Assembly: GCA_043760135.1 (NCBI GenBank) | Contig: JAYUPL010000007.1 | Coordinates: 64,106 to 128,105, forward strand | Length of the DNA stretch: 64,000 nt | Direction of reading: 5' to 3' | From: Candidatus Parcubacteria bacterium | GTDB taxonomy: Bacteria; Patescibacteriota; Minisyncoccia; Phycocordibacterales; CAIZLB01 | Shown here: piece by piece, positions 24,878 through 55,309 of the stretch | Numbering within the stretch: position 1 is the stretch's first letter | Layout of the letters: each line of letters starts with the position of its first letter | Made by a program: the position numbers and the translations under genes | Notes under the pieces: model-generated | What the model saw: only the letters and a program-made list of their open reading frames with translations | Told to the model about the DNA's origin: nothing | The model's database searches: none

Positions 24878-24878
24878 A

Positions 24879-26411: not shown

Positions 26412-26427
26412 GTGAATTTATTTTAAT

Positions 26428-28678: not shown

Positions 28679-28679
28679 A

Positions 28680-29909: not shown

Positions 29910-29913
29910 CATT

Positions 29914-30774: not shown

Positions 30775-31512
30775 TTATTTTAATTTATTCTTTACAAATC
30801 TAATCACCCTGTTTGTTTTATTTTTCAAGCCGTCCAGTATCCACAGTGTTTTTTCTTTTGTAGTGGGTGTAAAATAGTTTATTTTTGAACCTGCTTTAAC
30901 TTTTCTACCAAAGACACCACTTTGATAACCTGTATTTTCGAGGCTAAAAAACTCCAATTGCCAGTCAGGTAAATTTTTGGCCCACCAGTTTTTACTTCTG
31001 ATATGCCACATGCTTTGCTGAATGTTTCTATCATATCTTTCGTCAAAAAAGAGTGCTGATCCTTCAGGTAGGATATTTACCTCCTTTAAAAAATCCTTTA
31101 CATAAAAATCCTTGATGTGTGACAAAACAGTTGAGGTAGTAATGAAAGCTGGTTCGTTGAGTTTTAACATTTTCATTCCATCAACCATATCCATGTTTAC
31201 AAACTCAAGATTTGAGAAATTTCCCCGTTCGGTGATAATTTGCTTATTTATTTCGATTATTTCTTTCACAGGCTCTATTCCAATAACTCTTTTAAATAGG
31301 GGTGATGTCTTGTGCATGAGCCATGCAGAACCGCACCCGATGTCTACGTGCGTGTGAATATTATTGAGCATACTTATTGCTTTTTCAAAGCCTAGTTTTT
31401 CGAACATCTTACCATCTTCCTGCTTTTTTAAAATATTTTGCACGTATTCGGGCGTATGTAGTTTCAAATAGTCTTGTTCATGTTCTTTAAAGCTTTGCAA
31501 ATCTTTCTTCAT
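30775..31512 (-). CDS. Class I SAM-dependent methyltransferase
   Basis: Motif I VDIGCGSAWL. Confidence 0.65.
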   Translation of the reverse strand: MKKDLQSFKEHEQDYLKLHTPEYVQNILKKQEDGKMFEKLGFEKAISMLNNIHTHVDIGCGSAWLMHKTSPLFKRVIGIEPVKEIIEINKQIITERGNFSNLEFVNMDMVDGMKMLKLNEPAFITTSTVLSHIKDFYVKDFLKEVNILPEGSALFFDERYDRNIQQSMWHIRSKNWWAKNLPDWQLEFFSLENTGYQSGVFGRKVKAGSKINYFTPTTKEKTLWILDGLKNKTNRVIRFVKNKLK

Positions 31513-31516
31513 GTTT

Positions 31517-32422
31517 TTATTTTATTTTTTTTATTTGGTTTTTAATGGTGTTTAATGTTACAAGCCATTTCGGAAATTTTTTTGGCTCAGGCTTTCTTCC
31601 TGTTTCTTGTATGAATAATTCCTCAAGTTCTGATAAATGCCATATGTCTAAGGGTTCAAAGTAGAGTGCTCCATGTTCCTTAAGTTTTGATACTATCTCA
31701 TCTCTTTGCCAGATATTATCTTGTTGTATTAACGGCATTGTTTTCGGCTGTTTCTCAGAATTGTTTATCTCCCTACAAGTAAATTCCTTTGTGTGTCCGT
31801 ACATGTTGTTGATTCGCTTGGCTGATTTTTCTTTTTTTAAAAATTCAGAGATCATGTACCATACTTGCTTATACTGACAGCGTTTTTGGTCAATAAATTG
31901 ATAATGGAATATGAGATTATTACCTTCAATCCTTTTTGCCTCGATTCCAGTTGTTGGTACTCTTGGTATGCCAATGAACCCTGGTGCAAATACTGAAACT
32001 CCGTCATCGCAAAATGCAAAAGTTTTGAAAATCTGCGGTTTCTTAAATGTAGTTTTTGAACAGAGATTAAGCCATTCAAGTTCTAGTGATTGTCCAGGCT
32101 TTAAGGACTGCAGAATTTCTCTTGCGTTTTTTTGAAATTCTTCTGAGCAGGCCTCATCCGCATCAAGTGCTATGATGTGAGTGGCACCTTGCTCTCGTGC
32201 AGCCTGCAATAGTCGGGTACGAATCTCGTATTCTTTCCACCCTACGTTTGTAGAAGTTTCAAAGGGAATAATTGTACAATTATATTTTTTTAAAATTTCT
32301 AAAGTAGAGTCGGTTGAGTTGTCGTCAATAGTGATAATGCTATCAGCAAATGATAGGGATGTGAGACAATGTTCTAAACACCACTCTTCATTTTTAACAG
32401 GTAATAGTGCAATAATTTTCAT
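31517..32422 (-). CDS. Glycosyltransferase family 2
   Basis: IIALLPVKNEE...IITIDDNSTDST; DxD ALDADE. Confidence 0.7.
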   Translation of the reverse strand: MKIIALLPVKNEEWCLEHCLTSLSFADSIITIDDNSTDSTLEILKKYNCTIIPFETSTNVGWKEYEIRTRLLQAAREQGATHIIALDADEACSEEFQKNAREILQSLKPGQSLELEWLNLCSKTTFKKPQIFKTFAFCDDGVSVFAPGFIGIPRVPTTGIEAKRIEGNNLIFHYQFIDQKRCQYKQVWYMISEFLKKEKSAKRINNMYGHTKEFTCREINNSEKQPKTMPLIQQDNIWQRDEIVSKLKEHGALYFEPLDIWHLSELEELFIQETGRKPEPKKFPKWLVTLNTIKNQIKKIK

Positions 32423-33352
32423 TTATTTAATAAGTAATTTTTTAATATATGTTTTAAGTACATATATTAATTTATTATATCCAGTTGTTGATTTGAGTAA
32501 GGTTTTAAAGATACTTTTGTGTATTTCGTTTTCAGTGTTTTGAATAATAAGTACATAGTTGGGTACGAATTTTTTAACAGGGAAGGATTCATTAAAGAAA
32601 GTTATGTATGGGATCGAATATTCTACAGTTCGTGGCAAGAAGGTTAGGTCTATTTTATCAAAAATTCCGTACCGCAACTCGATAACTGTTCGTTCTGCAG
32701 GTTGCTTTGAGTTTGGTCTCGTACTGGCTCCTTTGCCTTCGTTTAAGTAATATCCTAAAAGTTCTTTGGCAATTGCTACTTTTCCGTTATATGCCAGTCT
32801 GATAGAGAGGTCAAAATCTGCTCCTGATTTTAATTGTTCATCAAAGTATCCAGCTTTTTCACATAGACTTTTCTTAAACATAAGAAAAGGACCAAAGACC
32901 ATTGATCTCTTGTATTCCTCCGGGTCAATATTTCCATGTTTAACAACTGAACCTTCAGTGGCTCCAAATTTTCTTACAATAGTGTAATCGCCAATAGCAA
33001 TATCAGCATCATTTCCGATAATCGCATTTACTTGGGATTCGATTGAGTTAGGTGTTCGTAAATCATCAACATTCCAGATAGTAACCAGCTCTCCTGAAGC
33101 CTCTTTGATACATCTATTCATCGATGTTCCAATAGGATCAACTTTTTCAATAATAATGTGTTTTATTTTATTTGGGTATTTTGCATCAAATTCTTTCACC
33201 CAGTTTATCTCTTCCTGATCAGGCTCATTATGGTCAAGAACCACTTCTAAATTATCAAAATACGTTTGCTGAGGTAACTCATCAAGGAATTTTTTTAAAT
33301 ATGGCTTCATTCTGAAGCATGGAGTGATGGTGCTGACTTTTAGTTTTGACAT
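32423..33352 (-). CDS. Glycosyltransferase family 2
   Basis: VSTITPCFRMKPYLKKFLDEL.QQTY..LEVVLDHNEPD; NVDD. Confidence 0.65.
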   Translation of the reverse strand: MSKLKVSTITPCFRMKPYLKKFLDELPQQTYFDNLEVVLDHNEPDQEEINWVKEFDAKYPNKIKHIIIEKVDPIGTSMNRCIKEASGELVTIWNVDDLRTPNSIESQVNAIIGNDADIAIGDYTIVRKFGATEGSVVKHGNIDPEEYKRSMVFGPFLMFKKSLCEKAGYFDEQLKSGADFDLSIRLAYNGKVAIAKELLGYYLNEGKGASTRPNSKQPAERTVIELRYGIFDKIDLTFLPRTVEYSIPYITFFNESFPVKKFVPNYVLIIQNTENEIHKSIFKTLLKSTTGYNKLIYVLKTYIKKLLIK

Positions 33353-33360
33353 TATAGGTA

Positions 33361-34161
33361 TTATAGATTTTTATGTTTTTTCATATCTTCTACCATTTTT
33401 GCAAGGCCTTTTTGTAAATCTACTCTCGGAGACCATCCTGGAATCTTTCCTTTGATAGGTGTGTCAGGGGTTGATCCCAGTTTTTCACCTGGAATAACTT
33501 TTGCGCCGGTGAGTTCTGCAATGATATTGGCCAAATCTATTACCCTAACCCACTCAAAACTGGTAACATCGTGAATTCCTTTAAGGTTATCTTCCATGGC
33601 TTTGTACCAAGCTTCGGTTACGTCATCAATATGTATAAAATGTCTTTTTTCCTCGCCAGAAGTCAACATACGGATCTCCCCGGTAGTCAGAGCTTGTGAT
33701 ACAAAGTCGGAAACAACGTGACTTCTGATTGATTCTTCTTCGATTGGACCATATACGTTCCACTGTCTAATAAATACACCTCCTAAAAGGCGTGTCCACA
33801 CCTCTCCAAGTCTTTTTGTAACACCATATACGGTGTCATATTCTTCGGCAAGTTGAGATGAAATAAAGAGAAATGGTTTCTTGCTTTTTTCCAATTGCCC
33901 CATTACGTTGTGTAATAGCTTTAAGTTTCCGCTTAGTTGACCCAATTGCAGGTCTTGGTGATATAAAAACTTGGCACCACCAACGTCCCAGGCCAAGAAA
34001 TAAACTCTATCTATTTCGTCAAAATTTATTTGTGCAATTCGAGCATCTTCGTGCTCACCGTTTTTTATATCAAATACAACAACTTCCTCACCTTTAGATT
34101 TTAAGAAGTGTACAAAAGGTTTTCCTATAAAGCCTTCTCCTCCAATTACTAGATTTCTCAT
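33361..34161 (-). CDS. NAD-dependent epimerase/dehydratase (SDR)
   Basis: GGEGFIG Rossmann motif; YGVTK catalytic YxxxK. Confidence 0.85.
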   Translation of the reverse strand: MRNLVIGGEGFIGKPFVHFLKSKGEEVVVFDIKNGEHEDARIAQINFDEIDRVYFLAWDVGGAKFLYHQDLQLGQLSGNLKLLHNVMGQLEKSKKPFLFISSQLAEEYDTVYGVTKRLGEVWTRLLGGVFIRQWNVYGPIEEESIRSHVVSDFVSQALTTGEIRMLTSGEEKRHFIHIDDVTEAWYKAMEDNLKGIHDVTSFEWVRVIDLANIIAELTGAKVIPGEKLGSTPDTPIKGKIPGWSPRVDLQKGLAKMVEDMKKHKNL

Positions 34162-34258
34162 GATATAGATATATAATTTTAGTTAGTTAATTTGATAAAT
34201 TTTACCACACTATTTGGTTTTAAGAAAATTGTTTAATTATGCGTTTTATTGGATATTA

Positions 34259-35554
34259 TTATGACCGAATCATTGCTATGATCCTGTTTCGAGGTACTTT
34301 AAACAGCATTACACTCAATGGTCCAAGAGTGTAAGAGGTGAGGGTGGCGAATGCTGAGCCGTTTATTCCATATTCAGGTATGAGTAGGATGTTTAATACA
34401 ACATTCAACACCATCCCAATTATTGACATATATAGAATAATAGAAGAAAGCTTTTCTGCTACTAAATACTGCATAATAACCATTCCAAGACTTATACCTA
34501 CTCCTGACCATATATAGAGTTGTAATACTTGGTATCCCGCAATAAAATTTACACCGAAGACTAAGTGTAAAATTGGTTTGGCATAAATACTTCCAATTAT
34601 TGCAATAATCGAAGAAGTTAGAATTAAAAAACCTGTTAATTTTAAAACTCTTTTTGTATAGATATATGTGTCAGTCATTTGAGCATTCAATATAGAAGGA
34701 AATAAAGTTGATACAATAATTGCCGGTATAAAATACCAAGCTTCAGATAACGTAACTGCTGCACTATATAAGCCAACAGCCTCGGCATTTATGTAGTTTT
34801 TGAGTAAAACTTGATCAACTCTGGAGTATATGAGGATAAAAATACTTGAAAACATAAGTGGTAACGATGCTTTTATTATTTCCTTGGCGATGGATAGTTT
34901 AAAATTCCATTTTTTTAATTTTCCATAAAATTTAGAATAATATATCAGAAAAAAAGTTCCATATAATAGTGGTTCTATTATTAAAACAAAGCCTAAAAAT
35001 AGGACCCCTTTATTCATGAACACGATGCTAAGTTTTAATAATGCTAAAATTATGCTCACTGATATTGTTATAAGTGAAAGTTTTTTGTTTTCAAGTCGTG
35101 CCTGAAAGGTATAAGTGATAACACTGAAAGCTTGAAAAATATATGAAATTGAGATAATGAATATTAATTTTCCTTCTAAGGGGTTTGTGGTAAAAAATAA
35201 TGAAACTAAAAAAGTTGTAACCAAAGCTAAAAAACCACCACTCATTTTCAATATAAAAGAAGTTCCAAGAATATCAGCCTCTTTCTCTGGATTCTTAATG
35301 ATCTCTCTGTATAAGATTTGGTCTATACCCAAAGTTGCAATAAAAGAAAATAATCCGACAAAGCTAATTGCATAGCTCAGCGTTCCGTATTTTTCAGGTC
35401 CTAGGTATCGGGCGACTATGGCTATTACAAAAAAGGATATACCCAAGCTTATTACTCGAGAAAAGAAAAGCCATCCAATGTTTTGGAAATACTTCTGGAA
35501 GCCTGCATGCTCCCATTTTTCTGTGAGGTATTTTTTTAAATCAACTATTTTCAT
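34259..35554 (-). CDS. Wzx-type oligosaccharide flippase (MOP superfamily polysaccharide biosynthesis protein)
   Basis: About 12-14 TM helices; typical Wzx/PST organisation; start set at MKIVDLKK. Confidence 0.8.
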   Translation of the reverse strand: MKIVDLKKYLTEKWEHAGFQKYFQNIGWLFFSRVISLGISFFVIAIVARYLGPEKYGTLSYAISFVGLFSFIATLGIDQILYREIIKNPEKEADILGTSFILKMSGGFLALVTTFLVSLFFTTNPLEGKLIFIISISYIFQAFSVITYTFQARLENKKLSLITISVSIILALLKLSIVFMNKGVLFLGFVLIIEPLLYGTFFLIYYSKFYGKLKKWNFKLSIAKEIIKASLPLMFSSIFILIYSRVDQVLLKNYINAEAVGLYSAAVTLSEAWYFIPAIIVSTLFPSILNAQMTDTYIYTKRVLKLTGFLILTSSIIAIIGSIYAKPILHLVFGVNFIAGYQVLQLYIWSGVGISLGMVIMQYLVAEKLSSIILYMSIIGMVLNVVLNILLIPEYGINGSAFATLTSYTLGPLSVMLFKVPRNRIIAMIRS

Positions 35555-35590
35555 ATAACTTTCTTTAAAATACATGTTATAATACTCCGC

Positions 35591-37744
35591 ATGAATACAC
35601 AAATACAAGACATTAAAAAAGCTCTAAGATTCATTACTATTATATTGATCGGAGCGACATTATTAACCCCTTTTATCTTCTCCGGCGAATTATTCTTTCC
35701 ATATATCACGAGCAAAGCATTTTTTATGAGATTGATGATCGTATTGTCTACAGTATCTTATATAGGTTTGGCATTAATTGATAAAAATTCACGTCCTAAA
35801 AAATCAGCCATGCTCTATGCAATGGGTGCTTTTATGGTCGTACTTCTGTTGGCAACATTAAATAGTGTGAATCCTACACGAAGTCTCTGGTCAAATTTTG
35901 AAAGAATGGAAGGTTTGGTAACTATGTTATATATGGCTGCATTATTTGTTATGTCTGCCTCAACACTCAGAAAGAAAGAGTGGACGCATATGATGCATTT
36001 TTCTCTCCTGATATCCGTTGTTACAGGTTTGCATGCGTTGGGTGATGCGAGTCCTCGTATATCTGGTCACCTCGGTAACTCTTCGTATCTTGGGGTGTAT
36101 GCTTTAATGCATGTATTTTTTGGCCTATTGGGTGCCGCGATGGTATTTAGAGGTAATAGAGAAAGGGAATTATTAGAATCAGGCGAACATAAGGCTGCCC
36201 ATAGATTAACAACAAATAATTACATGTCTATCGCACTATATATAGCGTTAGCTGTATTTAACCTATTTATCTTATTTAAAACAGGAACAAGAGGAGCTTT
36301 TGTTGGACTGGTTGTTGGTTTGATATTGTCGTCTATCTATTTGGTCTGGAAAGAGAAGAATAAGATCATCCGCTTCGGGGCTATGGGTTTTTTGATTGCT
36401 GTTGTGATGTCTGTTTCTTTTTTAGGTATTTTTAAGCATTCATCTTTCGTTGAGAATAATGTCTTGCTGTCTCGTTTTGCAGCTTTGGTTACAACAGACT
36501 ATAAAGCAGTATTGAACAACCAAGGTGAAAGTCGTACAATGATCTGGAAAATGGCATTTGAAGGGGTGAAAGAAAGACCTCTACTTGGTTGGGGGCAAGA
36601 TAATTTTGGGTATGTGTTTGCAAAATACTATAACCCTCACATGTATGCACAAGAGCAGTGGTTTGATAGATCTCACAATGTGTTTATGGATTGGTTGATT
36701 GCTGCGGGTATATTAGGTCTCGCAGGATACTTGTCTCTGTTTGTTATCGCACTGTATTTTATATTTTCTAAAAAATCTAAATTTACCATTATTGAAAAAT
36801 CAATATGGCTTGGATTGCTAGCATCATATTTTATACATAATATATTCGTATTTGATAACCTTTCAAGTTATGTACTATTCTTCCTGATATTGGGTTATAT
36901 AAATGATAGGTATACACACGATAGGAATGAAAAGGTAGATAGATCTTTATCTGAAAATGAAATGAATAAAATTATTCTTATAAGTATAATTTCACTTGGA
37001 GCGTTGTCTTATATTTCTTATCACACAATCTTAAGACCATATTCTCAAAATATTGCCTTGATAGAAGTTCTGAGAAATACACAAACTGTGGGAGTTTCTA
37101 AAACTATTGATAAAGATTTTGAAAATGTTTTACAAAAAGGTCCGACTGGAAAGTTTGAAATATTTGAACAAATATCAACTGCATTCCCAAAGATTGCAAA
37201 TGAACCTACACTATCTACTACAACGAAACAAAATCTATTTAATGTGTATAGAAAAATTGTTGCTGAATATGATAAAGAAATAAGTAATGATGCTCGATAT
37301 AATTATTTTGTATCTAATACATATAAAACTATCGGTATGAACGATCAAGCGTTGGTGTATATAAATAAGGCATATGATTTATCACCAACAAAGCAAACCT
37401 TCGCATACAGTAAAGCTATTTTATTGATAGATACAGGTGATATAAATGGTGCCATAGCGTTGCTAAAAAAAGCATATGAAGATGCACCAGAGAATATTAC
37501 TGCTTACGGATATTATGTTGGGACACTTTCTGAATTGGCGAAGAAGAATAATTATGCTTCAGCCGACATGGATAAGATCGCACAAGTATTAGCTGAAGGG
37601 TATACTAAAAATGGTTATGACTTAATTATTAAAAAAGAATTCTGGGATTTATTTACAAATCAAAAAGTAAAAACTGTGTTAGTAAATAAAATTTCCGAGT
37701 TAGTACCAGAATTAAAGTTAGGAATTATGAACGCATCGAGATAA
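35591..37744 (+). CDS. O-antigen ligase/polymerase (Wzy_C) family membrane protein fused to a C-terminal TPR-like domain
   Basis: Multi-TM N-terminal half with RSHNVFMDWLIAAGILG (Wzy_C-like); C-terminal about 250 aa soluble repeat region. Confidence 0.7.
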   Translation: MNTQIQDIKKALRFITIILIGATLLTPFIFSGELFFPYITSKAFFMRLMIVLSTVSYIGLALIDKNSRPKKSAMLYAMGAFMVVLLLATLNSVNPTRSLWSNFERMEGLVTMLYMAALFVMSASTLRKKEWTHMMHFSLLISVVTGLHALGDASPRISGHLGNSSYLGVYALMHVFFGLLGAAMVFRGNRERELLESGEHKAAHRLTTNNYMSIALYIALAVFNLFILFKTGTRGAFVGLVVGLILSSIYLVWKEKNKIIRFGAMGFLIAVVMSVSFLGIFKHSSFVENNVLLSRFAALVTTDYKAVLNNQGESRTMIWKMAFEGVKERPLLGWGQDNFGYVFAKYYNPHMYAQEQWFDRSHNVFMDWLIAAGILGLAGYLSLFVIALYFIFSKKSKFTIIEKSIWLGLLASYFIHNIFVFDNLSSYVLFFLILGYINDRYTHDRNEKVDRSLSENEMNKIILISIISLGALSYISYHTILRPYSQNIALIEVLRNTQTVGVSKTIDKDFENVLQKGPTGKFEIFEQISTAFPKIANEPTLSTTTKQNLFNVYRKIVAEYDKEISNDARYNYFVSNTYKTIGMNDQALVYINKAYDLSPTKQTFAYSKAILLIDTGDINGAIALLKKAYEDAPENITAYGYYVGTLSELAKKNNYASADMDKIAQVLAEGYTKNGYDLIIKKEFWDLFTNQKVKTVLVNKISELVPELKLGIMNASR

Positions 37745-45095: not shown

Positions 45096-47585
45096 ATGCC
45101 AAAGTCGCGAATAAACCAAAATGACAACGAAAATACAGAGGAAGTTGAAATTATACCCCATCAGAACGTGATCCAGAGAAATATAGTAGACGAAATGGAG
45201 GAGTCATATATCGATTATGCCATGAGTGTTATTACCGACCGTGCTCTACCCGATATTCGCGACGGTCTAAAACCTGTACAAAGACGTATTTTGTTTGCTA
45301 TGAGTAGGTTAGGTCTTTTACCAACTGCTAAATTTCAAAAGTCAGCCAAAGTGGTCGGAGAAACTATGGGTAACTACCACCCTCACGGTGATGCTGCCAT
45401 CTATCAAACTATGGTGAATATGGTGCAAGATTTTAACATGAGATATCCTTTGATCTGGGGACAAGGAAACTTTGGTAACGTTGATGGATATCCTGCAGCG
45501 GCTTCTCGTTATACTGAAAGTAAATTAAATAAAATCACTCTAAACATTTTAGCCGATCTTGATAAAGACACAGTGGATTTTCGTCCAAACTATGACGGAA
45601 CAAGAAAAGAACCTTCTGTATTACCAACACAGATTCCAAACTTCCTATTAAATGGTACTTTAGGTATTGCTGTGGGTATGGCCACAAACATTCCTCCTCA
45701 CAACCTAAATGAAGTGATGGATGCAGTGAACCATCTTGTTGATAATCCTGACGCAACCGTTCTTGATTTGATGCAATTTATCAAAGGACCAGATTTTCCT
45801 ACAGGCGCCATTGCATTTAACCAAAAAGATATAGAACATGCATGTACCCATGGTCGTGGTGGTGTTGTTGTGCGTGGTGAAGCTGAAATAGTTGAGGAAA
45901 AAGCTGGACAATCAAAGATTGTGATCAACTCTATTCCTTATAGAGTAAATAAATCATCGCTTATAGAGGCTATAGCCGACCTTGTGCGTGATAAAAAGCT
46001 TGAGGGTATCAAAGATATCAGAGATGAGTCTACAAGTGATATACGTATCGTTATAGAGCTTAAGAACGGAATGTACCCACAAAACATCCTAAACTATTTG
46101 TATAAACATACTCAATTGGAATCAACATTTCACTATAACTTAGTTGCATTAGTTGATGGTGTGCCTCAAACTTTGTCTATTAAGTCAGCTCTTGAAAATT
46201 TTGTTGGACATAGAAAAACAGTTATCAGACGTAGAACTGAGTTTGATCTTAGAAAAGCTGAAGATCGCGAGCATATCTTGCTTGGATTGAAAAAAGCTCT
46301 GGACCATATCGATGAAATCATTGCTATTATCAAGAAAAGTAAAGATACACCAGCTGCTCATATTGCCTTGATGAAAGAGTTTAAGTTCTCTGATCGTCAA
46401 ACTACAGCTATTTTGGAAATGAAACTGGCTCGTCTTGCGTCTCTCGAAAGAAAGAAAATTGAAGATGAATTAAAAGCACTGCAAGAAATTATCAAAGACT
46501 TGAAAGATATTCTAAAGAATACTTCAAGAATCTTGACTATTATTAAAGATGAATCAAATGCGATCAAAGAAAAATTTGGTGATGAAAGACGAACTCGTAT
46601 TGTAAAAGGTGGTGTAGCCAACGTTGGTGTAGAAGATGTGATTCCAGATCAAGAGTCTGTGCTTGTATTAACTGCCGGCGGATACATCAAACGTACAAAT
46701 CCAGATGAATACAAAAAACAACGAAGAGGAGGTGTGGGTGTTGTTGATGTTGATGTAAAGGAGGAGGATTTCATAACTCATCTTGTATCAGCTACGATGC
46801 ATAACGAGCTATTATTCTTCACTGATAAAGGTAAAGCATATCAAATCAAAATGTATGATATTCCAGAAGGAAAACGTGCAACTCGTGGTAAATCAATCAT
46901 GAACTTCTTATCTCTAGCACAAGATGAAAAAGTTACATCAATTCTTCCAATGCCAAAAGAAGTTAAAAAAGTTGATGATATATCTTTGATGTTGATCACT
47001 AAACTTGGTACAGGAAAGCGTGTAAACTTGTCTTCTTTCCGTGATGTAAGACGAAGTGGGATTATTGCTATCTCACTTGATGACAGTGATAGTTTGATTT
47101 CAGCTTCTTTTGTAAATGAAAAAGATTCTATGATTTTAGTTGCAACTGATGCACAATCAATCAGATTCTCTATCAATGAAATACGTGAAATGGGTAGATC
47201 GGCCGGTGGTGTTCGTGCAATGAAGCTCGATAAAAATGTTTCTATTATTGGTGCTATTCCGGTTAAATTTGGTTCTAAAGATGATGCTGAACTCTTAACC
47301 GTTTCTGCAAATGGATATGGTAAAAAAACCTCACTTTCAGAATACAAGATCCAAGGACGTGGTGGATCAGGAATAAAAACTTTTAAAGTTACAAGTAAAA
47401 CCGGAGACCTTATTGCTTCACAAGTTGTAACTCCAGAGCTCGATGAGATTGTTGCAATCAGTAAAAAGAGTCAGGTGATTAGATGTGAATTGAAAGAGAT
47501 TCCAAATCTTGGACGCGATACACAAGGCGTAAGAGTTATGAAATTACGTGAAGGGGATAGTCTCGCATCAGTTATAGGGGTATAA
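45096..47585 (+). CDS. gyrA: DNA gyrase subunit A
   Basis: [21 protein letters not shown]...[13 protein letters not shown]...; C-terminal beta-pinwheel repeats. Confidence 0.9.
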
Positions 47586-47690
47586 TATTAATACCTCTAC
47601 GCAGAGCTCCGAGGTATTAATATTGTTAACTCCTCGGTTCGGAAATACATATGGTACATATGTATTTCGCTCACTCTACGTCGTTAATAA
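47586..47690 (+). repeat. Structured repeat X: hairpin 1 (TATTAATACCTC...GAGGTATTAATA), GTTAACTCCTCGGTTCGG, hairpin 2 (GAAATACATATG-gta-CATATGTATTTC), CGCTCACTCTACGTCGTTAATAA
   Basis: Same architecture and arm sequences as reverse-complemented 50961..51073; the hairpin sequences differ but the pairing is preserved. Confidence 0.7.
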
Positions 47691-47712
47691 ATAATAAACA
47701 AAACAAAATAAA

Positions 47713-49029
47713 ATGAGCTCATCCAAAGATTTAAATATATTTCAGGTTCTAACAATAATCGTATTTCTTATCGTTGGTATTATAGGTATAGCAATGTTTG
47801 CTACCGGAAAAGCTGGTATAGGTGGATCAAGTTATAAAGCGACTATTTGGGGAGTGTTGCCAAAAGCAAATATTGATGCAGGTTTAGAACCTTTTAGAAT
47901 CAGGGGACAAGATCCAAGTTTTACCTACATAGAATTTCCAGAACAGGGGTTTGAGCAGGCGATATTAAAAGCTATTGCTGAGGGTAATGGACCAGATGCA
48001 ATCATTTTCCCTGACTACATGTATTATGGTCAGATAAATAAGCTACTCACTATTCCAAATTCAACTGTAACTGCTGAGACTTTTGCGAATACGTATTTGG
48101 ATATAGCTCAAAAATTTACTGTTCAAGGCGGTATAAAAGCCTTTCCGATTCTGATTGATCCTTTGGTGATGTATTACAATGTTGATTTATTAAAATCTGA
48201 AGGAATTTTGATACCACCAAAAGATTGGGTTGAATTTGCAAACCTTACAGAAAAAGTGGTGCGTAAACAAGACAACGGTATTATAGATAGAGCATACACT
48301 GCTCTAGGTGAGTATGATAATATTGATCACGCTAAAGATATATTGTTTGCCATGCTTGCTCAAGTTGGTGTAAATCTATCTTTTTATGATGTTGGAATAG
48401 GGTCATATGCATCAGGTTTAGTAAGTCAAGAATCATCAAGTCGTCTATCTCGTGAAGTTATGATTTATTATACAGAATTCGCCAATCCGACAAAAACATC
48501 ATATACCTGGAACAAATCTTTTAAGTCATCAAGAGAAGCATTTTTGGCTGGAGATTTGGCGATTTATTTTGGTCCTGGATCTGAAGTTGAATACATGAGA
48601 ACTCGTAACCCAAATCTAAATTTTGCAATTGCTGCAATACCTCAAGCATATTCAGATAAAAAAGTTACCCAAGCTAAGATATATTCTTTAGGATTCATGG
48701 TTACTTCAAGAGATCCTAACGCAACCTATCAAAATGTGATGAGTTTTTTCAACACGTTTGAGATGAATAAATCACTTTCTGATTCTGTACGTCTTGCTTC
48801 AGCTCGTCGTGATGTATTATTAAAATCAGAATTAGCAAAAACTAATGCTGATGTGGCAGTGATAAATAATTCAGCGATATATGCCGAATCTTGGATCGAT
48901 CCTGATGCCTATGAAAGTGATGATGTGTTTTCTAAGATGATAAATTCAATAGTCACTGGTACTCAAAATATTTCTGATGCGATCAATGATGCTGCTGAAA
49001 GGTTAGATAGATTATATTTAATAAGATAA
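47713..49029 (+). CDS. Membrane-anchored extracellular solute-binding-protein-like protein (SBP_bac_1-like), orphan
   Basis: N-terminal TM; DPLVMYYNVDLLKSEGILIPPKDWVEF resembles MalE-type SBPs; no permease/ATPase nearby. Confidence 0.5.
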   Translation: MSSSKDLNIFQVLTIIVFLIVGIIGIAMFATGKAGIGGSSYKATIWGVLPKANIDAGLEPFRIRGQDPSFTYIEFPEQGFEQAILKAIAEGNGPDAIIFPDYMYYGQINKLLTIPNSTVTAETFANTYLDIAQKFTVQGGIKAFPILIDPLVMYYNVDLLKSEGILIPPKDWVEFANLTEKVVRKQDNGIIDRAYTALGEYDNIDHAKDILFAMLAQVGVNLSFYDVGIGSYASGLVSQESSSRLSREVMIYYTEFANPTKTSYTWNKSFKSSREAFLAGDLAIYFGPGSEVEYMRTRNPNLNFAIAAIPQAYSDKKVTQAKIYSLGFMVTSRDPNATYQNVMSFFNTFEMNKSLSDSVRLASARRDVLLKSELAKTNADVAVINNSAIYAESWIDPDAYESDDVFSKMINSIVTGTQNISDAINDAAERLDRLYLIR

Positions 49030-49046
49030 TATGATAATATAAACCT

Positions 49047-49391
49047 ATGGAATTATTTTCAAAACTAAATGCTTGTATGGGGACAAGTATACAGGCTCGA
49101 CAGAAAGGTGGTTGTGGATGGGCAGAGTTAGGTCCGATTATAAATGAGTTACTATCCAACATTTTACTTCTTGGTATTTTTATTGCAGTGATAATGATAA
49201 TGTATGCTGGTTATATACTAGTTAACGGTCAAGGTTCACCAGACTCTCGTAGTCGTGCTAAAAAAATATTTATAGGAATAGTGATTGGTATGATTTTACT
49301 TGTTGGATCATATTACATAGTTGAATTTGTATTGGATACATTGGGTGTAAGTAATGACTATAGAAACAATTCACTCATTAAAAGAAATTAA
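49047..49391 (+). CDS. Small two-helix membrane protein, TrbC/VirB2-pilin-like topology (paralog 1 of 5)
   Basis: TM1-loop(NGQGSPDSRSRAKK)-TM2 hairpin shared with the four following ORFs. Confidence 0.45.
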   Translation: MELFSKLNACMGTSIQARQKGGCGWAELGPIINELLSNILLLGIFIAVIMIMYAGYILVNGQGSPDSRSRAKKIFIGIVIGMILLVGSYYIVEFVLDTLGVSNDYRNNSLIKRN

Positions 49392-49406
49392 TATATAATT
49401 ATACAT

Positions 49407-49874
49407 ATGAAAAACATCAAGAAAATAGTAATCATGGTTATAATATCGGTAGTATCGTTTGGTTCTGTTAGTGTTTCGGCTCTAAGTCCCGACAGGCAGG
49501 CAGAGGTTGATGCTGCGGCTGCAAGAAATAATCCTACTACCAATAATCCATCAAATAATACATCAAACACAAACACCCCTGCTCGTCCACTATTGAATCC
49601 TCCTCTTGGAAATGGAACTGCTGGAGGATCTGATCTAAAAACAATCTTCTTAAATGTGCTCGATGTTACTCAAGTTATTATCATCATGGTTACAACTCTA
49701 TATCTTATATTGGCTGGTTTTATGTTTGTGACGGCAAAAGGAGATCCAGGAAAACTCAAAAAAGCCAGAGATGCATTACTTTGGGGTCTTATCGGTGCTG
49801 CTTTGATATTGTGTGCTGAGGTGTTGGCTTACGGTATAGGTGACACGGTTAAAGAAGTCTTTAAAGGAAAATAA
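49407..49874 (+). CDS. Small two-helix membrane protein, pilin-like (paralog 2 of 5), signal peptide plus N/T/P-rich region
   Basis: TAKGDPGKLKKARDALLWGLIGAALIL conserved hairpin. Confidence 0.45.
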   Translation: MKNIKKIVIMVIISVVSFGSVSVSALSPDRQAEVDAAAARNNPTTNNPSNNTSNTNTPARPLLNPPLGNGTAGGSDLKTIFLNVLDVTQVIIIMVTTLYLILAGFMFVTAKGDPGKLKKARDALLWGLIGAALILCAEVLAYGIGDTVKEVFKGK

Positions 49875-49904
49875 TTAAAATCATAAACTAATCAAAAAAA
49901 ATAT

Positions 49905-50459
49905 ATGAAAAAATTGGTAATACTAATAATGATGCTGATACTGAGTGTAGGAGTGAGTGCGGATACGACAAATTCAAACGGAGTAGGCGATGATACAAAT
50001 TCGAATGGAGTAGGTGATACAACCAACTCAAATGGTTTAGGAGATGACACTCCAAATGACTATGATCCAAAAGTAGATCCAAATTTCTATAAGGACGGGA
50101 CTCCAAAAAGTACAAGTAAGGCAGGTTTTGATCCATCAAATTTAAATAAAAATCCTTTTTCATCTGGATCTGAAGGGGTTCCAAAGCTTTCTTTGTTAGG
50201 TATAGTGTACTGGCTCGCAGGTTTGATGAATCAGTTGGTCTATTTGATTATTGGAGCATCACTTGTTTGTTTTTTATATGGAATATTTAAACTATCATTT
50301 GTAGATGGACAAAAACCAGAAGCTCGAGAGCAAGCACGAAAATTTATGTTCTGGGGAATCGTTTCTCTGTTTGTAATGATGTCAGTTTGGGGATTGGTTA
50401 ATATACTAAAACTTTCACTCTTCGGTCCTGGAGACTTGATTATACCAAGACTTAAGTAG
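49905..50459 (+). CDS. Small two-helix membrane protein, pilin-like (paralog 3 of 5), signal peptide plus TNSNGVGDD repeats
   Basis: VDGQKPEAREQARKFMFWGIVSLFVMMSVWGLVNIL. Confidence 0.45.
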   Translation: MKKLVILIMMLILSVGVSADTTNSNGVGDDTNSNGVGDTTNSNGLGDDTPNDYDPKVDPNFYKDGTPKSTSKAGFDPSNLNKNPFSSGSEGVPKLSLLGIVYWLAGLMNQLVYLIIGASLVCFLYGIFKLSFVDGQKPEAREQARKFMFWGIVSLFVMMSVWGLVNILKLSLFGPGDLIIPRLK

Positions 50460-50513
50460 TATAATATGTGCATCATTATAAATAATAAAAAATATTAAAA
50501 AACACTAAACAAA

Positions 50514-50906
50514 ATGAAAAAAATACTATCATTACTCATCACACTGTCACCAACAGTTTTACTGGCTAACGACGACCAAGCACCTATCGCAAGAACTGTT
50601 GATGGACTGCTTAACTGGCTTATATACATAGCTGGACGAGCACTACCTCTTCTTATTCTAGCTGCTCTTGTACTATTTTTGTTCGGTATAGTAAAAAGAT
50701 TCTTCTGGGCAAAAGATACAGCAGATAAAGGTGAAGCTGGAAGATATATATTGTGGGGTGTGGTTGCTTTGTTTGTTATGGTATCAGTTTGGGGACTTGT
50801 AAACGTTTTAAGAGGTTCATTTAATCTAGATAACAACAACGTGCCTCTCGCACCTGCTGTTCCTGTACAAAATGCTCCATATGCAGCTCCTACAACAAGA
50901 CCATAG
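50514..50906 (+). CDS. Small two-helix membrane protein, pilin-like (paralog 4 of 5)
   Basis: AKDTADKGEAGRYILWGVVALFVMVSVWGLVNVL. Confidence 0.45.
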   Translation: MKKILSLLITLSPTVLLANDDQAPIARTVDGLLNWLIYIAGRALPLLILAALVLFLFGIVKRFFWAKDTADKGEAGRYILWGVVALFVMVSVWGLVNVLRGSFNLDNNNVPLAPAVPVQNAPYAAPTTRP

Positions 50907-50960
50907 GTCTCTCTAATGTTAGTTATAAAAAGATTTGCGGTTCATAGCCTCAAGTCTTTT

Positions 50961-51073
50961 TTTGTTATTAACGACCGTTGGGTGAGTGAAATGAACGTGT
51001 TAGCACTTTCATTTCCGAACTGAGGAGTTAACATGATTACCACCTGGATGCTTTGCGTCGAGAAGGTAATCAT
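50961..51073 (-). repeat. Structured repeat Y (inverted copy of X): TTATTAACGACCGTTGGGTGAGTG, hairpin (GAAATGAA...TTCATTTC), CCGAACTGAGGAGTTAAC, hairpin (ATGATTACC...GGTAATCAT)
   Basis: Arms match the reverse complement of 47625..47690. Confidence 0.7.
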
Positions 51074-51080
51074 TATATAA

Positions 51081-51386
51081 TTGTTCTATATGCAAAAAGT
51101 CTATTCAATAATATCTAAGATCAATGATATTATTATTAATCCTATTATCCTCCTTTTGTTTTCAGTAGCGCTACTTTATTTTATGTTTGGAGTGTTTGAG
51201 TACATATGGAAATCGAGATCAGATCCAGGAAAAATTAAAGAAGGTAGATCTCATATGGGTTGGGGATTGTTCGGGATGTTTATTATGATTTCAGTTTTTG
51301 GTTTATTTAAAATTTTGCTGAATACTGTACCGGTGAGTGAGAGAACTAAAACAAATGTGAATAGGGTAATGGATCTCGATAAATAA
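51081..51386 (+). CDS. Small two-helix membrane protein, pilin-like (paralog 5 of 5), outside the X/Y-bracketed segment
   Basis: WKSRSDPGKIKEGRSHMGWGLFGMFIMISVFGLFKIL. Confidence 0.45.
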   Translation: MFYMQKVYSIISKINDIIINPIILLLFSVALLYFMFGVFEYIWKSRSDPGKIKEGRSHMGWGLFGMFIMISVFGLFKILLNTVPVSERTKTNVNRVMDLDK

Positions 51387-51396: not shown

Positions 51397-51430
51397 CGCT
51401 CGCCTGATGAACAGGCGGGCGCTTTTTTGA
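51397..51430. terminator. Bidirectional rho-independent terminator (CGCTCGCCTG-atgaa-CAGGCGGGCG followed by CTTTTTTGA)
   Basis: GC-rich hairpin plus T-run. Confidence 0.7.
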
Positions 51431-51439: not shown

Positions 51440-51985
51440 TTATTCTTTCCGTCCCATCATGACGGCCAGGGTTTTGTCTGGGGCTGCTGGGACGAAACGA
51501 ACACGGGAAGCATTCATCCGGATTGCGAGGAATTGTTTTGGGTCGATGACGACCTTGGAAAACTCACTATTATCTAACCGGAGGTAGGACTCGTTGGTAT
51601 CGCTGTCTTTCCAGACAGCTGTGACTTTGTTCGGGTCGTCCTTGGATTGGAATTCGATGACACAGTCTTTTTTGACACGGTATGTTGTGTTGAATGTGTT
51701 TACTGGTCCACGCATTACGAACCATTCGGTCGTATTGGTGGCAGCTGTGGTTGGGGTGAACCAATCGTAGCCGTGACTGTCGACCCCCTTATGGTCAAAG
51801 TTCCAGCCGGTTGGGCTTTCAGGTTGACGAGGGGTTGGAAGTGGACGTTCGGCGGGGAGTGGGGTGATGACGGTTTTTTTAATGGTCTGAACAGTGTTGT
51901 AACTGTTTTTCCGGAAGAATATTTCATCCCGGAAAAAATAGAACATAGCTCCGATGAATACGAGGATCAGGATTATTGCTTTCAT
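51440..51985 (-). CDS. Hypothetical N-terminally anchored secreted protein, higher-GC gene
   Basis: N-terminal TM; Pro-rich linker; visibly G+C-richer codons than the genome background. Confidence 0.45.
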   Translation of the reverse strand: MKAIILILVFIGAMFYFFRDEIFFRKNSYNTVQTIKKTVITPLPAERPLPTPRQPESPTGWNFDHKGVDSHGYDWFTPTTAATNTTEWFVMRGPVNTFNTTYRVKKDCVIEFQSKDDPNKVTAVWKDSDTNESYLRLDNSEFSKVVIDPKQFLAIRMNASRVRFVPAAPDKTLAVMMGRKE

Positions 51986-52115: not shown

Positions 52116-53192
52116 TCAAATATCAAGGATTGTACGTCCTGCACCTCTGCCTGTCAGGATTTTCTTCTGGATGATTCCACGCTGAGTCATGACAATTGCC
52201 TGTGCCTCTTTATAGCTTAGAGGCTTGGTAGGATCCACTTCCTTGGACTTGTCGATCACCATCTGGATCTGATCGTTTAGTGCCGCTGTATCGACTTTCT
52301 CACGAGCATCCAGTGCTGCTTGAGCTCTGGCTGCTGATGCATCGTCAATTTGCTGTTTAATCTGCGCGGCCGGTTCTTGGATGTCCACAAGGTTGAAGTT
52401 GCTGATTTGATCGCCGTATCTTCCTTCAACAGGTGCCATTGCTTCACCCAAATGGGTTTCAATGTCATTCTTATCTATCTTCAAGGCTTTGACATCCTTG
52501 TACTTGTGGGCAGAGTCGTTGGTCCAATCGGTCAGTGCCTCAGTCAGAACATTAATTAGATCTTCATCCTTGTGAGGATTAGTGATATAAAGATATGTGT
52601 CTACTGTTGTTGCTGCAAAGTTTACATCAAAGTCCGCCTGAAACTTTTTCCCCTCCGAGTCACCATCTATCTCGATCTGGATGGATATAGTCTTTTTGAT
52701 CACTCGAGCTGTATTGTCCAGTGCATGAATCTTGACTAAAAATGCTGGGAGTCCTGTAAACAGGCCGATTGCAGAATTTTTCTGATTCTTGAATGCTATA
52801 GGCATCCAGCCATTGATTGACAGCTGCCCGATCTGGGTTTCTGACAACCTCTTCTTGTCCCAGCACGATAATATTGAAGCAACTGCCAAGGTGGCGAGAA
52901 TGGCTTTGAAGGTTGCCCGTAAGCCAATCCGTAACCATTCAGCGAGTGGGTGCCACTCAACATTAAATGCCGGTCCAAGCACATAGAGGATGAAGAAGTA
53001 GGCTATCGTGAAGATCATCGCATGGTATGCAACGAACATCAAGACTTTCGACAACATCAGCCAGCTAATGTAGGCTACCAAAGCAACCAGGATGCATACT
53101 GAAATTTTCCATTCGAAGGGTGAGATTATCAATGCAATCAGAATTGCAAATCCTCCCACCCAATTAAGCATTTGCCTTTGTTTTACTGTCAT
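52116..53192 (-). CDS. Multi-TM protein with C-terminal SPFH/band-7-like domain (tentative), higher-GC gene
   Basis: Four N-terminal TM helices; C-terminal Ala/Gln-rich coiled segment and a core reminiscent of stomatin/HflK. Confidence 0.4.
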   Translation of the reverse strand: MTVKQRQMLNWVGGFAILIALIISPFEWKISVCILVALVAYISWLMLSKVLMFVAYHAMIFTIAYFFILYVLGPAFNVEWHPLAEWLRIGLRATFKAILATLAVASILSCWDKKRLSETQIGQLSINGWMPIAFKNQKNSAIGLFTGLPAFLVKIHALDNTARVIKKTISIQIEIDGDSEGKKFQADFDVNFAATTVDTYLYITNPHKDEDLINVLTEALTDWTNDSAHKYKDVKALKIDKNDIETHLGEAMAPVEGRYGDQISNFNLVDIQEPAAQIKQQIDDASAARAQAALDAREKVDTAALNDQIQMVIDKSKEVDPTKPLSYKEAQAIVMTQRGIIQKKILTGRGAGRTILDI

Positions 53193-54802: not shown

Positions 54803-55309
54803 ATGAAAAACACAAAAAAATACCAAAAGGGCACTTCTTTTTTGCCAAGGCAAAACAAGTCGCAAAAAGGGTTTACCCTTATCGAAATATTAGTAGTGAT
54901 CGGTATTATCGGGATCCTGGCCACGGTGGTTTTGGTGGCAGTAAATCCGAGTCGTCAATTTAAACAAGCAAGAGATTCGCAACGGGTAGCGAACGTGAAT
55001 ACTATATTGAATGCTCTCGGTCAAAATATTGCTGACCACCAAGGTAACTTGTTTTGTGACGGGGCAATCACCCCTTTAGATTATAACTCTACACATGAGA
55101 TAAGTAGTACTGCCGGAGCCTTTGATGTCGCAAACTGCTTGATTCCTGAATATTTACCTAAGCTGCCATATGACCCTAAAAATGATACTTCCCACTATAC
55201 GAATGAAGATGAATACAATACTGGATATAACTTGTCTGTTGATGATGGAGGACGTCTCACAGTAACTGCTGCGGGGGAGATACAATCAGAAATTTCAGTA
55301 ACAAGGTAA
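54803..55309 (+). CDS. Type IV pilin (prepilin-type N-terminal cleavage/methylation domain)
   Basis: KGFTLIEILVVIGIIGILATVVLVAV class III signal peptide. Confidence 0.8.
   Translation: MKNTKKYQKGTSFLPRQNKSQKGFTLIEILVVIGIIGILATVVLVAVNPSRQFKQARDSQRVANVNTILNALGQNIADHQGNLFCDGAITPLDYNSTHEISSTAGAFDVANCLIPEYLPKLPYDPKNDTSHYTNEDEYNTGYNLSVDDGGRLTVTAAGEIQSEISVTR

Follow-up and report, generated by a model that had tools for sequence, protein, structure and literature searches.

Five small genes stand in tandem at positions 49047–51386 of a 64-kb piece of genomic DNA (hereafter the window, by which we mean the whole stretch of 64,000 nucleotides that was analyzed), and this locus raises the question of whether their products build a pilus or a conduit, or an apparatus for uptake. 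Patescibacteria are unable to make most of their building blocks and take material from their hosts. The Patescibacterial T4SS, together with unusual pilin arrays, is essential in the one species tested. Paceibacteria, the largest class, have an array of constant composition, with five distinct subunits, and it is nearly always linked to a solute-binding protein (SBP) without a transporter, a link that gives testable handles on the three possibilities.

The extent of the array had been predicted exactly, with five real ORFs on the + strand filling 49047–51386, and the SBP-like protein proposed next to it was likewise confirmed. The features of the locus, together with one distant gene, are the following.

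22093–23847, + strand: orphan type IV coupling protein, a VirD4/TraD-like ATPase of 584 aa (PF02534, PF10412)
47581–47698, gyrA–SBP intergenic region: structured repeat copy A, inverted relative to copy B
47713–49029, + strand: SBP gene, 438 aa, first gene of the module, with PF13416 and PF01547 matches
49047–49391, + strand: P1, 114 aa, hairpin protein without a signal peptide
49407–49874, + strand: P2, 155 aa, signal-peptide-like segment, variable linker, then hairpin
49905–50459, + strand: P3, 184 aa, signal-peptide-like segment, low-complexity region of ~75 aa, then hairpin
50514–50906, + strand: P4, 130 aa, signal-peptide-like segment, short N-terminal segment, hairpin, C-terminal tail
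50957–51077, P4–P5 intergenic region: structured repeat copy B, orientation opposite to copy A
51081–51386, + strand: P5, 101 aa from a TTG codon, minimal hairpin protein without a signal peptide
51397–51421, + strand: intrinsic terminator, 10-bp stem with eight G–C pairs, then a T-run

The true start of P5 is probably the ATG at 51090, which would yield a protein of 98 aa. The terminator behind P5 closes the operon and is shared with a convergent gene on the - strand. Convergent downstream genes (51440–51985 and 52116–53192) were considered as part of the module and rejected, since they are conserved in close relatives only, and the Band_7 gene that takes their place in the related locus L092 is not related to them. 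One family HMM per ortholog group, run against every ORF of either strand of the 64-kb window down to a length of 50 aa, matched P1–P5 alone (E ≤ 1), and profile–profile comparison of the five groups joined all ten pairs with 96.5–100% probability (E 7e-10 to 7e-41, 74–91 columns). Since the group HMMs match only P1–P5 and all ten profile pairs are homologous, the array pattern is not a product of chance.

The five proteins had been read as T4SS-pilin-like, and the scores against three profile families support this reading. P1 (29.3 bits), P2 (36.3 bits), P3 (33.5 bits) and P4 (28.4 bits) pass the gathering cut-off of 26.6 bits of T4SS_pilin (PF18895) with E-values of 6e-9 to 2e-6. Across the five genes, the PF18895 matches span 59–68 of the 71 profile positions. 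P5 stays under this cut-off (18.4 bits, E 2.3e-3), and hhalign connects its ortholog profile to the P3 group at 99.8% and to the P4 group at 99.9%. The TrbC/VirB2 cut-off (PF04956, 27.9 bits) is not reached: P1 scores 24.8 bits (E 2.6e-5) and P2 16.4 bits, with these sub-threshold matches extending over both helices, and the Pfam scan returned no PF04956 match for P3, P4 and P5. Long P1 orthologs score 17–21 bits against the same family, and among 65 P2 homologs, which all carry PF18895, PF04956 is on record in four. At the level of sequence, a relationship of the five proteins to PF04956 is plausible. All five further match NF045849, a 'pilin-like conjugal transfer protein' model, at 16–32 bits and hence under its 40-bit cut-off, P1 reaching 32.4 bits and P5 an E-value of 5.3e-5. 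The P2-family profile retrieved only noise from among solved structures (KCNQ channels, E > 2) and no solved pilin, while a fold search gave generic helical hairpins only, with neither VirB2 nor TraA among the best 50. None of the five proteins matched the N_methyl family of type IV pilins (PF07963); a true N_methyl protein is encoded elsewhere, at 54803–55309.

VirB2-type proteins consist of two hydrophobic α-helices and a short positive loop, and this is what hydropathy, alignment, an AF2 model of P2 and the loop charge reveal for P1–P5. Each protein has two long hydrophobic helices by hydropathy, the short loop between them carries a net positive charge in all five, and the modeled hairpin of P2 comprises residues 77–109 and 114–153 with a core pLDDT of 82–87. 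A motif W-G-x9-S-V-W-G-L-V-N had been proposed for all five proteins; P3 and P4 fit it, P5 does so in part only, and P1 and P2 do not. The regions upstream of the hairpin differ as anticipated: P2, P3 and P4 begin with signal-peptide-like segments, recognized by eye and by hydropathy (K-rich n-region, hydrophobic core and a small-x-small site reading VSA, VSA and LLA, respectively), which are absent from P1 and P5. The P2 linker (approximately residues 26–72) is rich in Asn, Ala, Pro, Ser and Thr and is 9–36% identical between orthologs, compared to 51–93% for the core. The signal-peptide-like segment of P3 is followed by the expected low-complexity region (~75 aa, N/G/S/D/T-rich) that contains TNSNGVGDD three times, and this repeat is real in the DNA, where TRF finds 2.7 copies of a 27-nt period at 49962–50035. 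Among orthologs, the P3 repeats are lineage-specific. A strain-level change in their copy number was considered and dismissed, since the 175-aa version in L001 is another start-codon call of an identical sequence. The predicted hypervariability of the N-terminal regions holds for P2 and P3 (9–46% identity with many gaps, versus 49–93% in the cores) and not for the other members. P1 possesses a two-cysteine motif, C...GCGW, ahead of helix 1, in which C10, C23, G24 and W25 are invariant, and its long orthologs of other species (351–966 aa) begin with a signal peptide and end with the PF18895 hairpin, with FN3/Ig-like repeats in between. The C-terminal tail of P4 is Pro/Ala-rich and 50–73% conserved in seven of the eight orthologs compared, with 31% in L015.

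We then asked how the five genes relate to one another across species. Core identity amounts to 53–70% within an ortholog group, to 14–37% between groups (group means) and to 14–39% among the five window proteins, P3 and P4 sharing 39%. Since identity is high within the ortholog groups and low between them, the genes are not recent duplicates; as judged from these alignments, they are anciently diverged paralogs that represent five old ortholog groups. The same module was found in L002–L009 and in 80 GTDB species loci. The order SBP-P1-P2-(two genes of the P3/P4 type)-P5, 3′ of gyrA, recurs across Paceibacteria, and gene order is kept down to 32% SBP identity. The module adjoins gyrA in 74 of the 80 loci, ends with P5 in 64 and has a single orientation in all of them, with a median intergenic gap of 17 nt. 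A pilin-family gene follows the SBP gene in 77 of the 78 evaluable species genomes; among the 64 complete arrays, 47 contain five pilin genes and 44 show the order S-1-2-m-m-5. The module had been suggested to be variable, which fails in its own lineage: there, the cassette has a constant set of five genes. Copy number differs in distant lineages (four to seven genes), and L092 has eight genes, one of them a 7-hairpin fusion, and shows five recently duplicated, near-identical copies. In some genomes, single proteins fuse five to eight hairpins, and one fused protein lies in a gyrA-MTase-SBP-P1-P2 context; hairpins joined in one protein inside the module argue for a co-assembly of the subunits. 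For P0074, a protein with five fused hairpins, AF2 run on the single sequence gave a weak model (pLDDT 66, pTM 0.42), for which Foldseek found no meaningful match. No relatives of the five proteins were found on viral contigs.

The SBP scores 61.3 bits against PF13416 and 53 bits against PF01547 and has an N-terminal TM helix without a lipobox; it is membrane-anchored and a distant MalE-type carbohydrate SBP. SBP-dependent ABC importers have a permease and an ATPase alongside, a situation that does not apply here: neither an ABC permease nor an ABC ATPase was found in the 64-kb window, and the SBP genes of the related loci that were inspected have none next to them either. The coupling of SBP and array gives a hint of a structure on the cell surface that may serve in contact with the host or in uptake, and a role of the SBP in the function of the array is something that we infer purely from linkage. 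The papers searched make no mention of an SBP–array association, and the supplementary tables of PMC12102498 name no SBP families.

Since the original prediction had called for a search for VirB4 and VirB6, we inspected the T4SS genes of the window. Neither was found inside the 64 kb, and a scan of every ORF of 110 aa or more, covering 49 kb on the upstream side of the array and 13 kb on the downstream side, revealed no VirB3/PrgI or VirB8 either, so that the array is not encoded with VirB4/VirB6-type machinery in this window. A genome without any T4SS component had been named as an outcome that would refute the pilin reading, and this is not the case here. The VirD4-like ATPase at 22093–23847, 26 kb from the array, is the sole T4SS-family gene of the window, with 29.1 bits for PF02534 (GA 20.1), 27.0 bits for PF10412 (GA 20.5) and TraD/CedD-type NCBIfam matches under threshold. 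Its neighbors are housekeeping genes, and any tie to the array is hypothetical. In the literature, this gene class is mostly unlinked to virB4, the S. epibionticum homologue was non-essential, and such genes may have been exapted.

Tandem VirB2-like arrays are already published for Patescibacteria, and P1–P5 belong to the same family as the essential array of Ca. Southlakia epibionticum. A recent survey counted 441 Patescibacterial VirB2 arrays of 2–11 genes with ~25% identity inside arrays (PMC12102498, Quinonero-Coronel et al. 2025), an array being defined as at least two pilin genes (PF18895/PF04956, E < 0.001, >50% profile coverage) in tandem or with one gene between. P1–P5 form an array in this sense, with five tandem genes of 14–39% identity, P5 just missing the 0.001 threshold with its E-value of 2.3e-3. 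In S. epibionticum ML1, the six PF18895 genes SEML1_0014–0019 stand beside VirB6/PrgI/VirB4-like genes and are all essential (PMC10633639, Wang et al. 2023), and other authors have suggested that such genes build a pilus or a conduit for uptake (PMC12857230). The published arrays resemble ours in PF18895 membership, weak PF04956 similarity and low internal identity (~25% there, 14–39% here), and the ML1 array additionally in its small tandem genes (six of 103–185 aa there, five of 101–184 aa here), the putative signal peptides of some members, the chromosomal location and the monoderm, ultrasmall bacterium that carries it. In contrast, the ML1 array is embedded in a T4SS cluster, whereas no T4SS structural gene lies in the 64-kb window here, and our array differs from the Patescibacterial VirB2 arrays by its coupling to an orphan SBP 3′ of gyrA. 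The arrays of PMC12102498 belong chiefly to Microgenomatia and Saccharimonadia, while the one described here is a Paceibacteria-wide cassette. What sets the locus apart from the known arrays is the fixed five-gene Paceibacteria cassette and its coupling to the SBP.

When compared to the VirB2, TrbC and TraA pilins of the F, T and RP4 pili, the proteins are similarly small, with a putative leader (P2–P4), two hydrophobic helices, a short basic loop and an expected N-out/C-out topology, and their sub-threshold PF04956 similarity covers both helices. They differ in scoring below the PF04956 cut-off, in lacking sequence or Foldseek matches to solved pilins, in their monoderm host, in five non-identical subunits instead of one major pilin, in long N-terminal extensions, FN3 fusions (in other species) and the lack of an adjoining VirB4, and in showing no sign of cyclization or acetylation. 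To our knowledge, no pilus has ever been observed in these organisms. The Mbov_0395 family of the Mycoplasma ICE (NF045849) likewise has two helices and belongs to the T4SS of a monoderm, and to its 80-position model the five proteins align almost completely (E 5e-8 to 5e-3), yet the Mycoplasma protein is a lone gene inside a mobile element. The archaeal Ced/Ted DNA import systems and H. pylori ComB are T4SS-derived importers that combine a VirB2-like pilin with T4SS ATPases and work in the uptake direction. They set a precedent for uptake, and the VirD4-like ATPase of the window has a weak CedD match; unlike the module described here, these systems have no SBP partner.

P1–P5 are genuine genes for Patescibacterial VirB2-like T4SS_pilin paralogs and make up the distal part of an operon with the SBP first and a strong terminator last, and we propose that their products form a heteromeric, pilus-like surface assembly, possibly for uptake. 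To this reading as a whole, we assign a probability of about 0.6. The five proteins would insert into the cytoplasmic membrane in an N-out/C-out topology with the basic loop in the cytoplasm, P2–P4 by way of cleavable signal peptides and P1 and P5 as short-tailed hairpins. Together they may then build a single heteromeric structure of the envelope or cell surface that resembles a VirB2 pilus, whose exposed, fast-evolving surfaces would be the N-terminal parts, namely the Cys motif or adhesin domains of P1, the P2 linker and the low-complexity stalk of P3. The most likely driver of assembly would be a Patescibacterial T4SS of the VirB4/VirB6 type whose genes lie elsewhere; Saccharibacteria offer the model, since their homologous array is needed for epibiotic growth. 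From the obligate SBP partner, a role in conjugative export seems less likely than one in recognizing the host surface or in capturing or taking up a carbohydrate-like ligand from the host. Several points speak against this pilus-like assembly: the window has a coupling-protein ATPase but no VirB4, VirB6, VirB3/PrgI or VirB8 gene, sequence and fold searches gave no match to a solved pilin, the PF04956 cut-off is not reached, no pilus is known from these organisms, and the fused proteins of 10–16 helices would be awkward subunits for a classical extruded pilus.

The fusions would be in line with a module that works independently of any T4SS, in which the SBP and the five hairpins form a membrane complex of their own, a ring or pore of ~10 helices for a novel SBP-dependent uptake or sensing, and the hairpin family merely shares ancestry with VirB2. 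Fused c-ring proteolipids offer a parallel for such polypeptides. The near-obligate linkage of SBP and array (77/78) in a neighborhood devoid of T4SS genes, the absence of an ABC permease or ATPase near the SBP and the number of hairpin genes, mostly fixed at five, point in the same direction, as does a weak match of P4 to BPD_transp_1 (18.3 bits, E 0.002). This match is below its GA of 26.4 bits, however, and typical of hydrophobic-helix noise, and no energizing component (ATPase or ion-coupling motif) was identified. Furthermore, Saccharibacteria carry the same family inside a bona fide T4SS cluster, and the large, adhesin-like P1 ectodomains of other species suit a surface appendage better than a permease. 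We thus regard a T4SS-independent complex as unlikely, while taking it seriously. Somewhat harder to credit is a variant in which the SBP and the hairpins constitute a self-contained envelope machine, a hitherto unrecognized kind of uptake conduit derived from T4SS pilins and independent of, or only loosely tied to, VirB4; here a single heteromeric ring or tube would consist of the five non-redundant hairpins and be fed by the dedicated SBP. Known VirB2 pili have a five-start geometry with pentameric layers, which five subunits would match, and the unit is a single chain in some species.

The genes could also be interchangeable pilin variants, of which one or few are used at once for antigenic or host-range variation. 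The tandem, diverged VirB2-type arrays of Bartonella and Anaplasma have been proposed to serve as such alternative variants in immune evasion, and the possibility has been raised in the published reading of Patescibacterial arrays (PMC12102498). The fast-evolving, exposed N-terminal regions of P2 and P3 with their lineage-specific repeats, the five near-identical recent copies in L092 and an inverted repeat that flanks SBP–P4 would be in line with this idea. By contrast, each position of our array is occupied by an old, individually conserved ortholog group with its own signature (the Cys motif of P1, the Pro-rich tail of P4, the minimal P5), and separate conserved groups in a constant order indicate non-redundant roles. 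An invertible SBP–P4 segment between the repeats was rejected: the orientation is the same in all 80 loci, identity between the two repeats amounts to no more than ~75%, L002 lacks copy A ahead of its SBP gene, and L011 has an extra copy elsewhere; nor is there a recombinase nearby. Interchangeable variants are therefore very doubtful.

Finally, the proteins might be small peptides that have nothing to do with pili and are secreted or act on membranes, whether holins or class II bacteriocins encoded along with their immunity proteins, as had been raised originally for bacteriocin-like peptides. Small hydrophobic two-helix proteins in tandem, some of them with leader peptides, would suit this reading, but it is hardly credible. 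In the Pfam scan, P1–P5 hit neither a bacteriocin nor a holin family at E ≤ 1, and there is no double-glycine leader, ABC exporter, peptidase or phage context in what is a housekeeping neighborhood. The chromosomal site by gyrA is deeply conserved (74/80 loci), and the family with the PF18895-type hairpin reaches 16,247 cluster representatives.

The 'X/Y repeats' noted originally are probably this inverted repeat of ~105–120 nt, present at 47581–47698 and 50957–51077. By blastn, these are the only two copies in the window, with 74–75% identity (E ~1e-12). Rfam returned no match for the repeat, whose predicted fold consists of two hairpins (z -4.6). Copy B is kept at the P4–P5 position in L010 (86%) and in L002–L004 (78%), and the hairpin stem of the repeat covaries among five copies.

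The five tandem genes for small two-helix membrane proteins that had been proposed for 49047-51386 are indeed present as consecutive + strand ORFs (P1-P5), and hydropathy analysis places two long hydrophobic helices and a net positive inter-helix loop region in 5/5 products. A solute-binding protein (SBP) gene lies, as predicted, 17 nt before P1, and the successive spacings from P1 to P5 are 15, 30, 54 and 174 nt. The locus comprises the following features:

45096-47585: gyrA, directly 5' of SBP
47581-47698 and 50957-51077: two copies of a ~105-120-nt intergenic element, in inverted orientation and 75% identical, flanking SBP-P4
47713-49029, +: SBP, 438 aa (PF13416 61 bits, PF01547 53 bits)
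49047-49391, +: P1, 114 aa
49407-49874, +: P2, 155 aa
49905-50459, +: P3, 184 aa
50514-50906, +: P4, 130 aa
51081-51386, +: P5, 101 aa from a TTG start (ATG at 51090 according to the gene callers of an identical contig)
51397-51421, 3' of P5: strong intrinsic terminator (10-bp stem, 8 G-C pairs, T-run)

The SBP possesses a transmembrane anchor at its N-terminus and no lipobox. Signal-peptide-like N-termini are found in P2, P3 and P4, followed in P2 and P3 by a low-complexity region, which in P3 harbors the predicted TNSNGVGDD repeat in three copies (27-nt period in the DNA, 49962-50035). P1 opens with a short tail that carries two invariant cysteines (C...GCGW), and P5 is essentially a bare hairpin. 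AlphaFold2 folds P2 as a helical hairpin (H77-109 and H114-153, core pLDDT 82-87). Core identity within the window amounts to 39% for P3/P4, ~25% for P5 versus either of these and 14-24% for the other pairs; the motif WG-x9-SVWGLVN, originally ascribed to all five, is shared by P3, P4 and partly P5 and is not array-wide.

P1-P4 match the Pfam family PF18895 'T4SS_pilin' with 28.4-36.3 bits, above the curated cut-off of 26.6 bits, and P5 scores below it (18.4 bits). Matches to PF04956 (TrbC/VirB2) span both helices below cut-off (P1 24.8 bits, E 2.6e-5; P2 16.4 bits), and all five proteins align full-length, with scores under the cut-off, to the NCBIfam model NF045849 ('pilin-like conjugal transfer protein', from Mycoplasma ICEs). 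The Pfam scan of P1-P5 returned no family of bacteriocins, holins or type IV pilins (N_methyl). Searches of the PDB by sequence and by Foldseek yielded nothing specific, which for so simple a fold is uninformative rather than negative. When HMMs were prepared separately for the P1, P2, P3, P4 and P5 orthologs and run against every window ORF >=50 aa, both strands included (E<=1), P1-P5 were the sole ORFs matched. Profile-profile comparison, based on deep alignments of 61-100 orthologous sequences for each group, linked all 10 pairs across the whole hairpin (96.5-100% probability, E 7e-10 to 7e-41). The P2-family profile retrieved 16,247 of 1.84 billion cluster representatives (E<=1e-3); hence, the family is large. 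Membership of P1-P5 in the T4SS-pilin family is close to certain.

Relatives were recovered in two ways. Exact-protein look-ups led to near-identical and related MAGs that carry the locus (L001-L009). A scan of 185,579 species genomes, with an alignment of the SBP as query, yielded a further 80 loci at species level, which bear the labels Parcubacteria, Paceibacteria, Nomurabacteria and similar (SBP identity 88% down to 32%). A pilin-family gene starts no more than 700 nt after the SBP stop codon in 77 of the 78 loci that could be evaluated, and gyrA lies 5' of SBP on the same strand in 74/80. More distant Paceibacteria loci (L022-L089) carry a class I SAM-methyltransferase gene (~171-190 aa) between gyrA and SBP (e.g. 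L029:7471-7986, L092:5095-5664); the window lineage does not, and there gyrA abuts SBP. Of the 64 complete arrays, most contain five genes (47 arrays; six in 12, four in 4, seven in 1), and 44 are arranged as SBP-P1-P2-(two P3/P4-type genes)-P5; the genes all lie on one strand, and the gap between them has a median of 17 nt. Since core identity is 53-70% inside each positional group versus 14-37% between groups, P1-P5 are old, non-redundant ortholog groups with their own signatures (the P1 cysteine pair, a Pro/Ala tail in P4, the minimal form of P5), as opposed to recent or interchangeable duplicates. The hypervariability predicted for the N-terminal regions is borne out for P2 and P3, where it is concentrated: their post-signal-peptide parts share 9-46% identity among orthologs (cores: 49-93%), are rich in gaps and carry lineage-specific repeats.

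P1 orthologs in other Paceibacteria reach 351-966 aa (L080:4808-7708, L044:6980-9211, L066:9282-11135, L035:9291-10883, L054:9280-10773 and others). They begin with a signal peptide and FN3/Ig-like (or InlB B-repeat-like/other beta-rich) repeats, after which come the two-cysteine motif and, at the C-terminus, the PF18895 hairpin. This is in effect a pilin-anchored adhesin architecture, which shows that P1 can present adhesin-type domains. Because the secreted domains are N-terminal, the N-terminus would be extracellular and the basic loop cytoplasmic, which is the topology of VirB2. The representative search further revealed proteins of 260-820 aa with 3-8 tandem hairpins behind a single signal peptide and a P1-like Cys motif. 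Five of them (P0067, P0069, P0072, P0074 and P0079) combine 5-8 T4SS_pilin hairpins (10-16 helices) in one polypeptide, and one cluster member stems from Ca. Andersenbacteria. P0067 (L092:8001-9821, 7 hairpins) lies inside the same gyrA-methyltransferase-SBP-P1-P2 module, and five further genes with one hairpin each come after it; these are recent duplicates with near-identical signal peptides. These fusions argue that the array hairpins sit side by side in one assembly.

T4SS components are represented in the window by a single gene. Among the window ORFs scanned (>=110 aa, including every ORF >=150 aa) there was no VirB4, VirB6, VirB3 or VirB8 and no ABC permease or ABC ATPase; one orphan VirD4/TraD-like type IV coupling-protein ATPase is encoded between D-Ala-D-Ala carboxypeptidase and acyltransferase genes (22093-23847, +, 584 aa), with no other T4SS gene near it. 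This matches the published pattern, in which VirD4-like coupling proteins are abundant in Patescibacteria, usually unlinked to virB4, and may have been exapted (PMC12102498). The same study (Quinonero-Coronel et al. 2025) screened 3,035 Patescibacteria genomes for PF18895 and PF04956 and counted 441 'VirB2 arrays', which comprise 2-11 genes at ~25% within-array identity and occur mainly in Microgenomatia and Saccharimonadia. In Ca. Southlakia epibionticum, six PF18895 genes (SEML1_0014-0019), all essential for epibiotic growth, adjoin VirB6-like, PrgI and VirB4-like genes (Wang et al. 2023, PMC10633639), neighbours that the array described here lacks within the window. These published arrays of the same family support the TrbC/VirB2-like pilin reading of the original prediction, and our array is a member of this known kind. 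Apparently undescribed is the variant, a cassette of five orthologs that is linked to gyrA, coupled to an SBP and conserved throughout Paceibacteria, and of which relatives have adhesin-bearing and fused forms.

We propose that the operon yields an SBP anchored in the membrane together with five hairpin proteins, which would adopt an N-out/C-out topology and assemble jointly into a heteromeric envelope or surface structure resembling a VirB2 pilus, with the N-terminal regions of P1, P2 and P3 as its exposed, fast-evolving parts. By analogy with Saccharibacteria, a VirB4/VirB6-type T4SS encoded elsewhere may serve as assembly motor, and the invariant SBP partner may act in ligand capture/uptake or host-surface recognition. 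We assign this proposal a probability of roughly 0.6, its weak links being the T4SS dependence and the SBP role. An autonomous complex in the membrane or device for uptake, coupled to the SBP, would fit the SBP-array linkage, the missing T4SS neighbours in the window and the hairpin fusions, but no energiser was identified for it and its Saccharibacteria homologs are embedded in T4SS, so that we consider it unlikely. A 2025 review (PMC12857230) speculates on the pilus as an uptake conduit; a pilin-derived, SBP-fed conduit independent of VirB4 seems quite improbable. A repertoire of alternative pilin variants is in this lineage hard to reconcile with the deep, ordered orthology and the one orientation across all loci, and we hold it to be very unlikely. 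Bacteriocin- or holin-like peptides, the former raised in the original prediction, are highly implausible given no family match, exporter or phage context.

The intergenic element also occurs in L010:6043-6203, L002:11439-11574 and L011:1925-2014 with a conserved core (GTTAACTCCTCGGTTCGGAAA ... CGTCGTTAATAA). Its hairpin stem covaries among the five copies (compensatory changes in 7/12 pairs), the folding z-scores are -3.3 to -5.3 and nothing in Rfam matches; the element probably represents a dispersed structured repeat or a small RNA. The flanking copies probably do not form an inversion system, as all loci share a single orientation and the copies are 75% identical.

Two - strand genes 3' of the terminator converge on the array: 51440-51985 (181 aa, signal anchor) and 52116-53192 (358 aa, N-terminal TM helices, coiled C-terminal half). 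Neither matches Pfam or NCBIfam, and both are kept in close relatives only (L002, L010, L012, L013, L016). A genuine type IV pilin or pseudopilin (54803-55309, +; PF07963 N_methyl, 37 bits) lies 3.4 kb 3' of the array and in an equivalent place in L002 and L007. Elsewhere, the window contains a large - strand cluster for surface polysaccharide (23819-37744) that encodes glycosyltransferases (GT2, GT11, GT1), methyltransferases including FkbM, an epimerase and a flippase of the Wzx type; after it comes a 717-aa O-antigen ligase-like (Wzy_C) protein that also carries a TPR domain. A MazF/PemK-type toxin gene (18412-18774, +; PF02452, 53.7 bits) is found among housekeeping genes, and 1888-4686 (+) encodes a 932-aa, possibly surface, protein with beta-propeller/DUF5074/YncE-like repeats.
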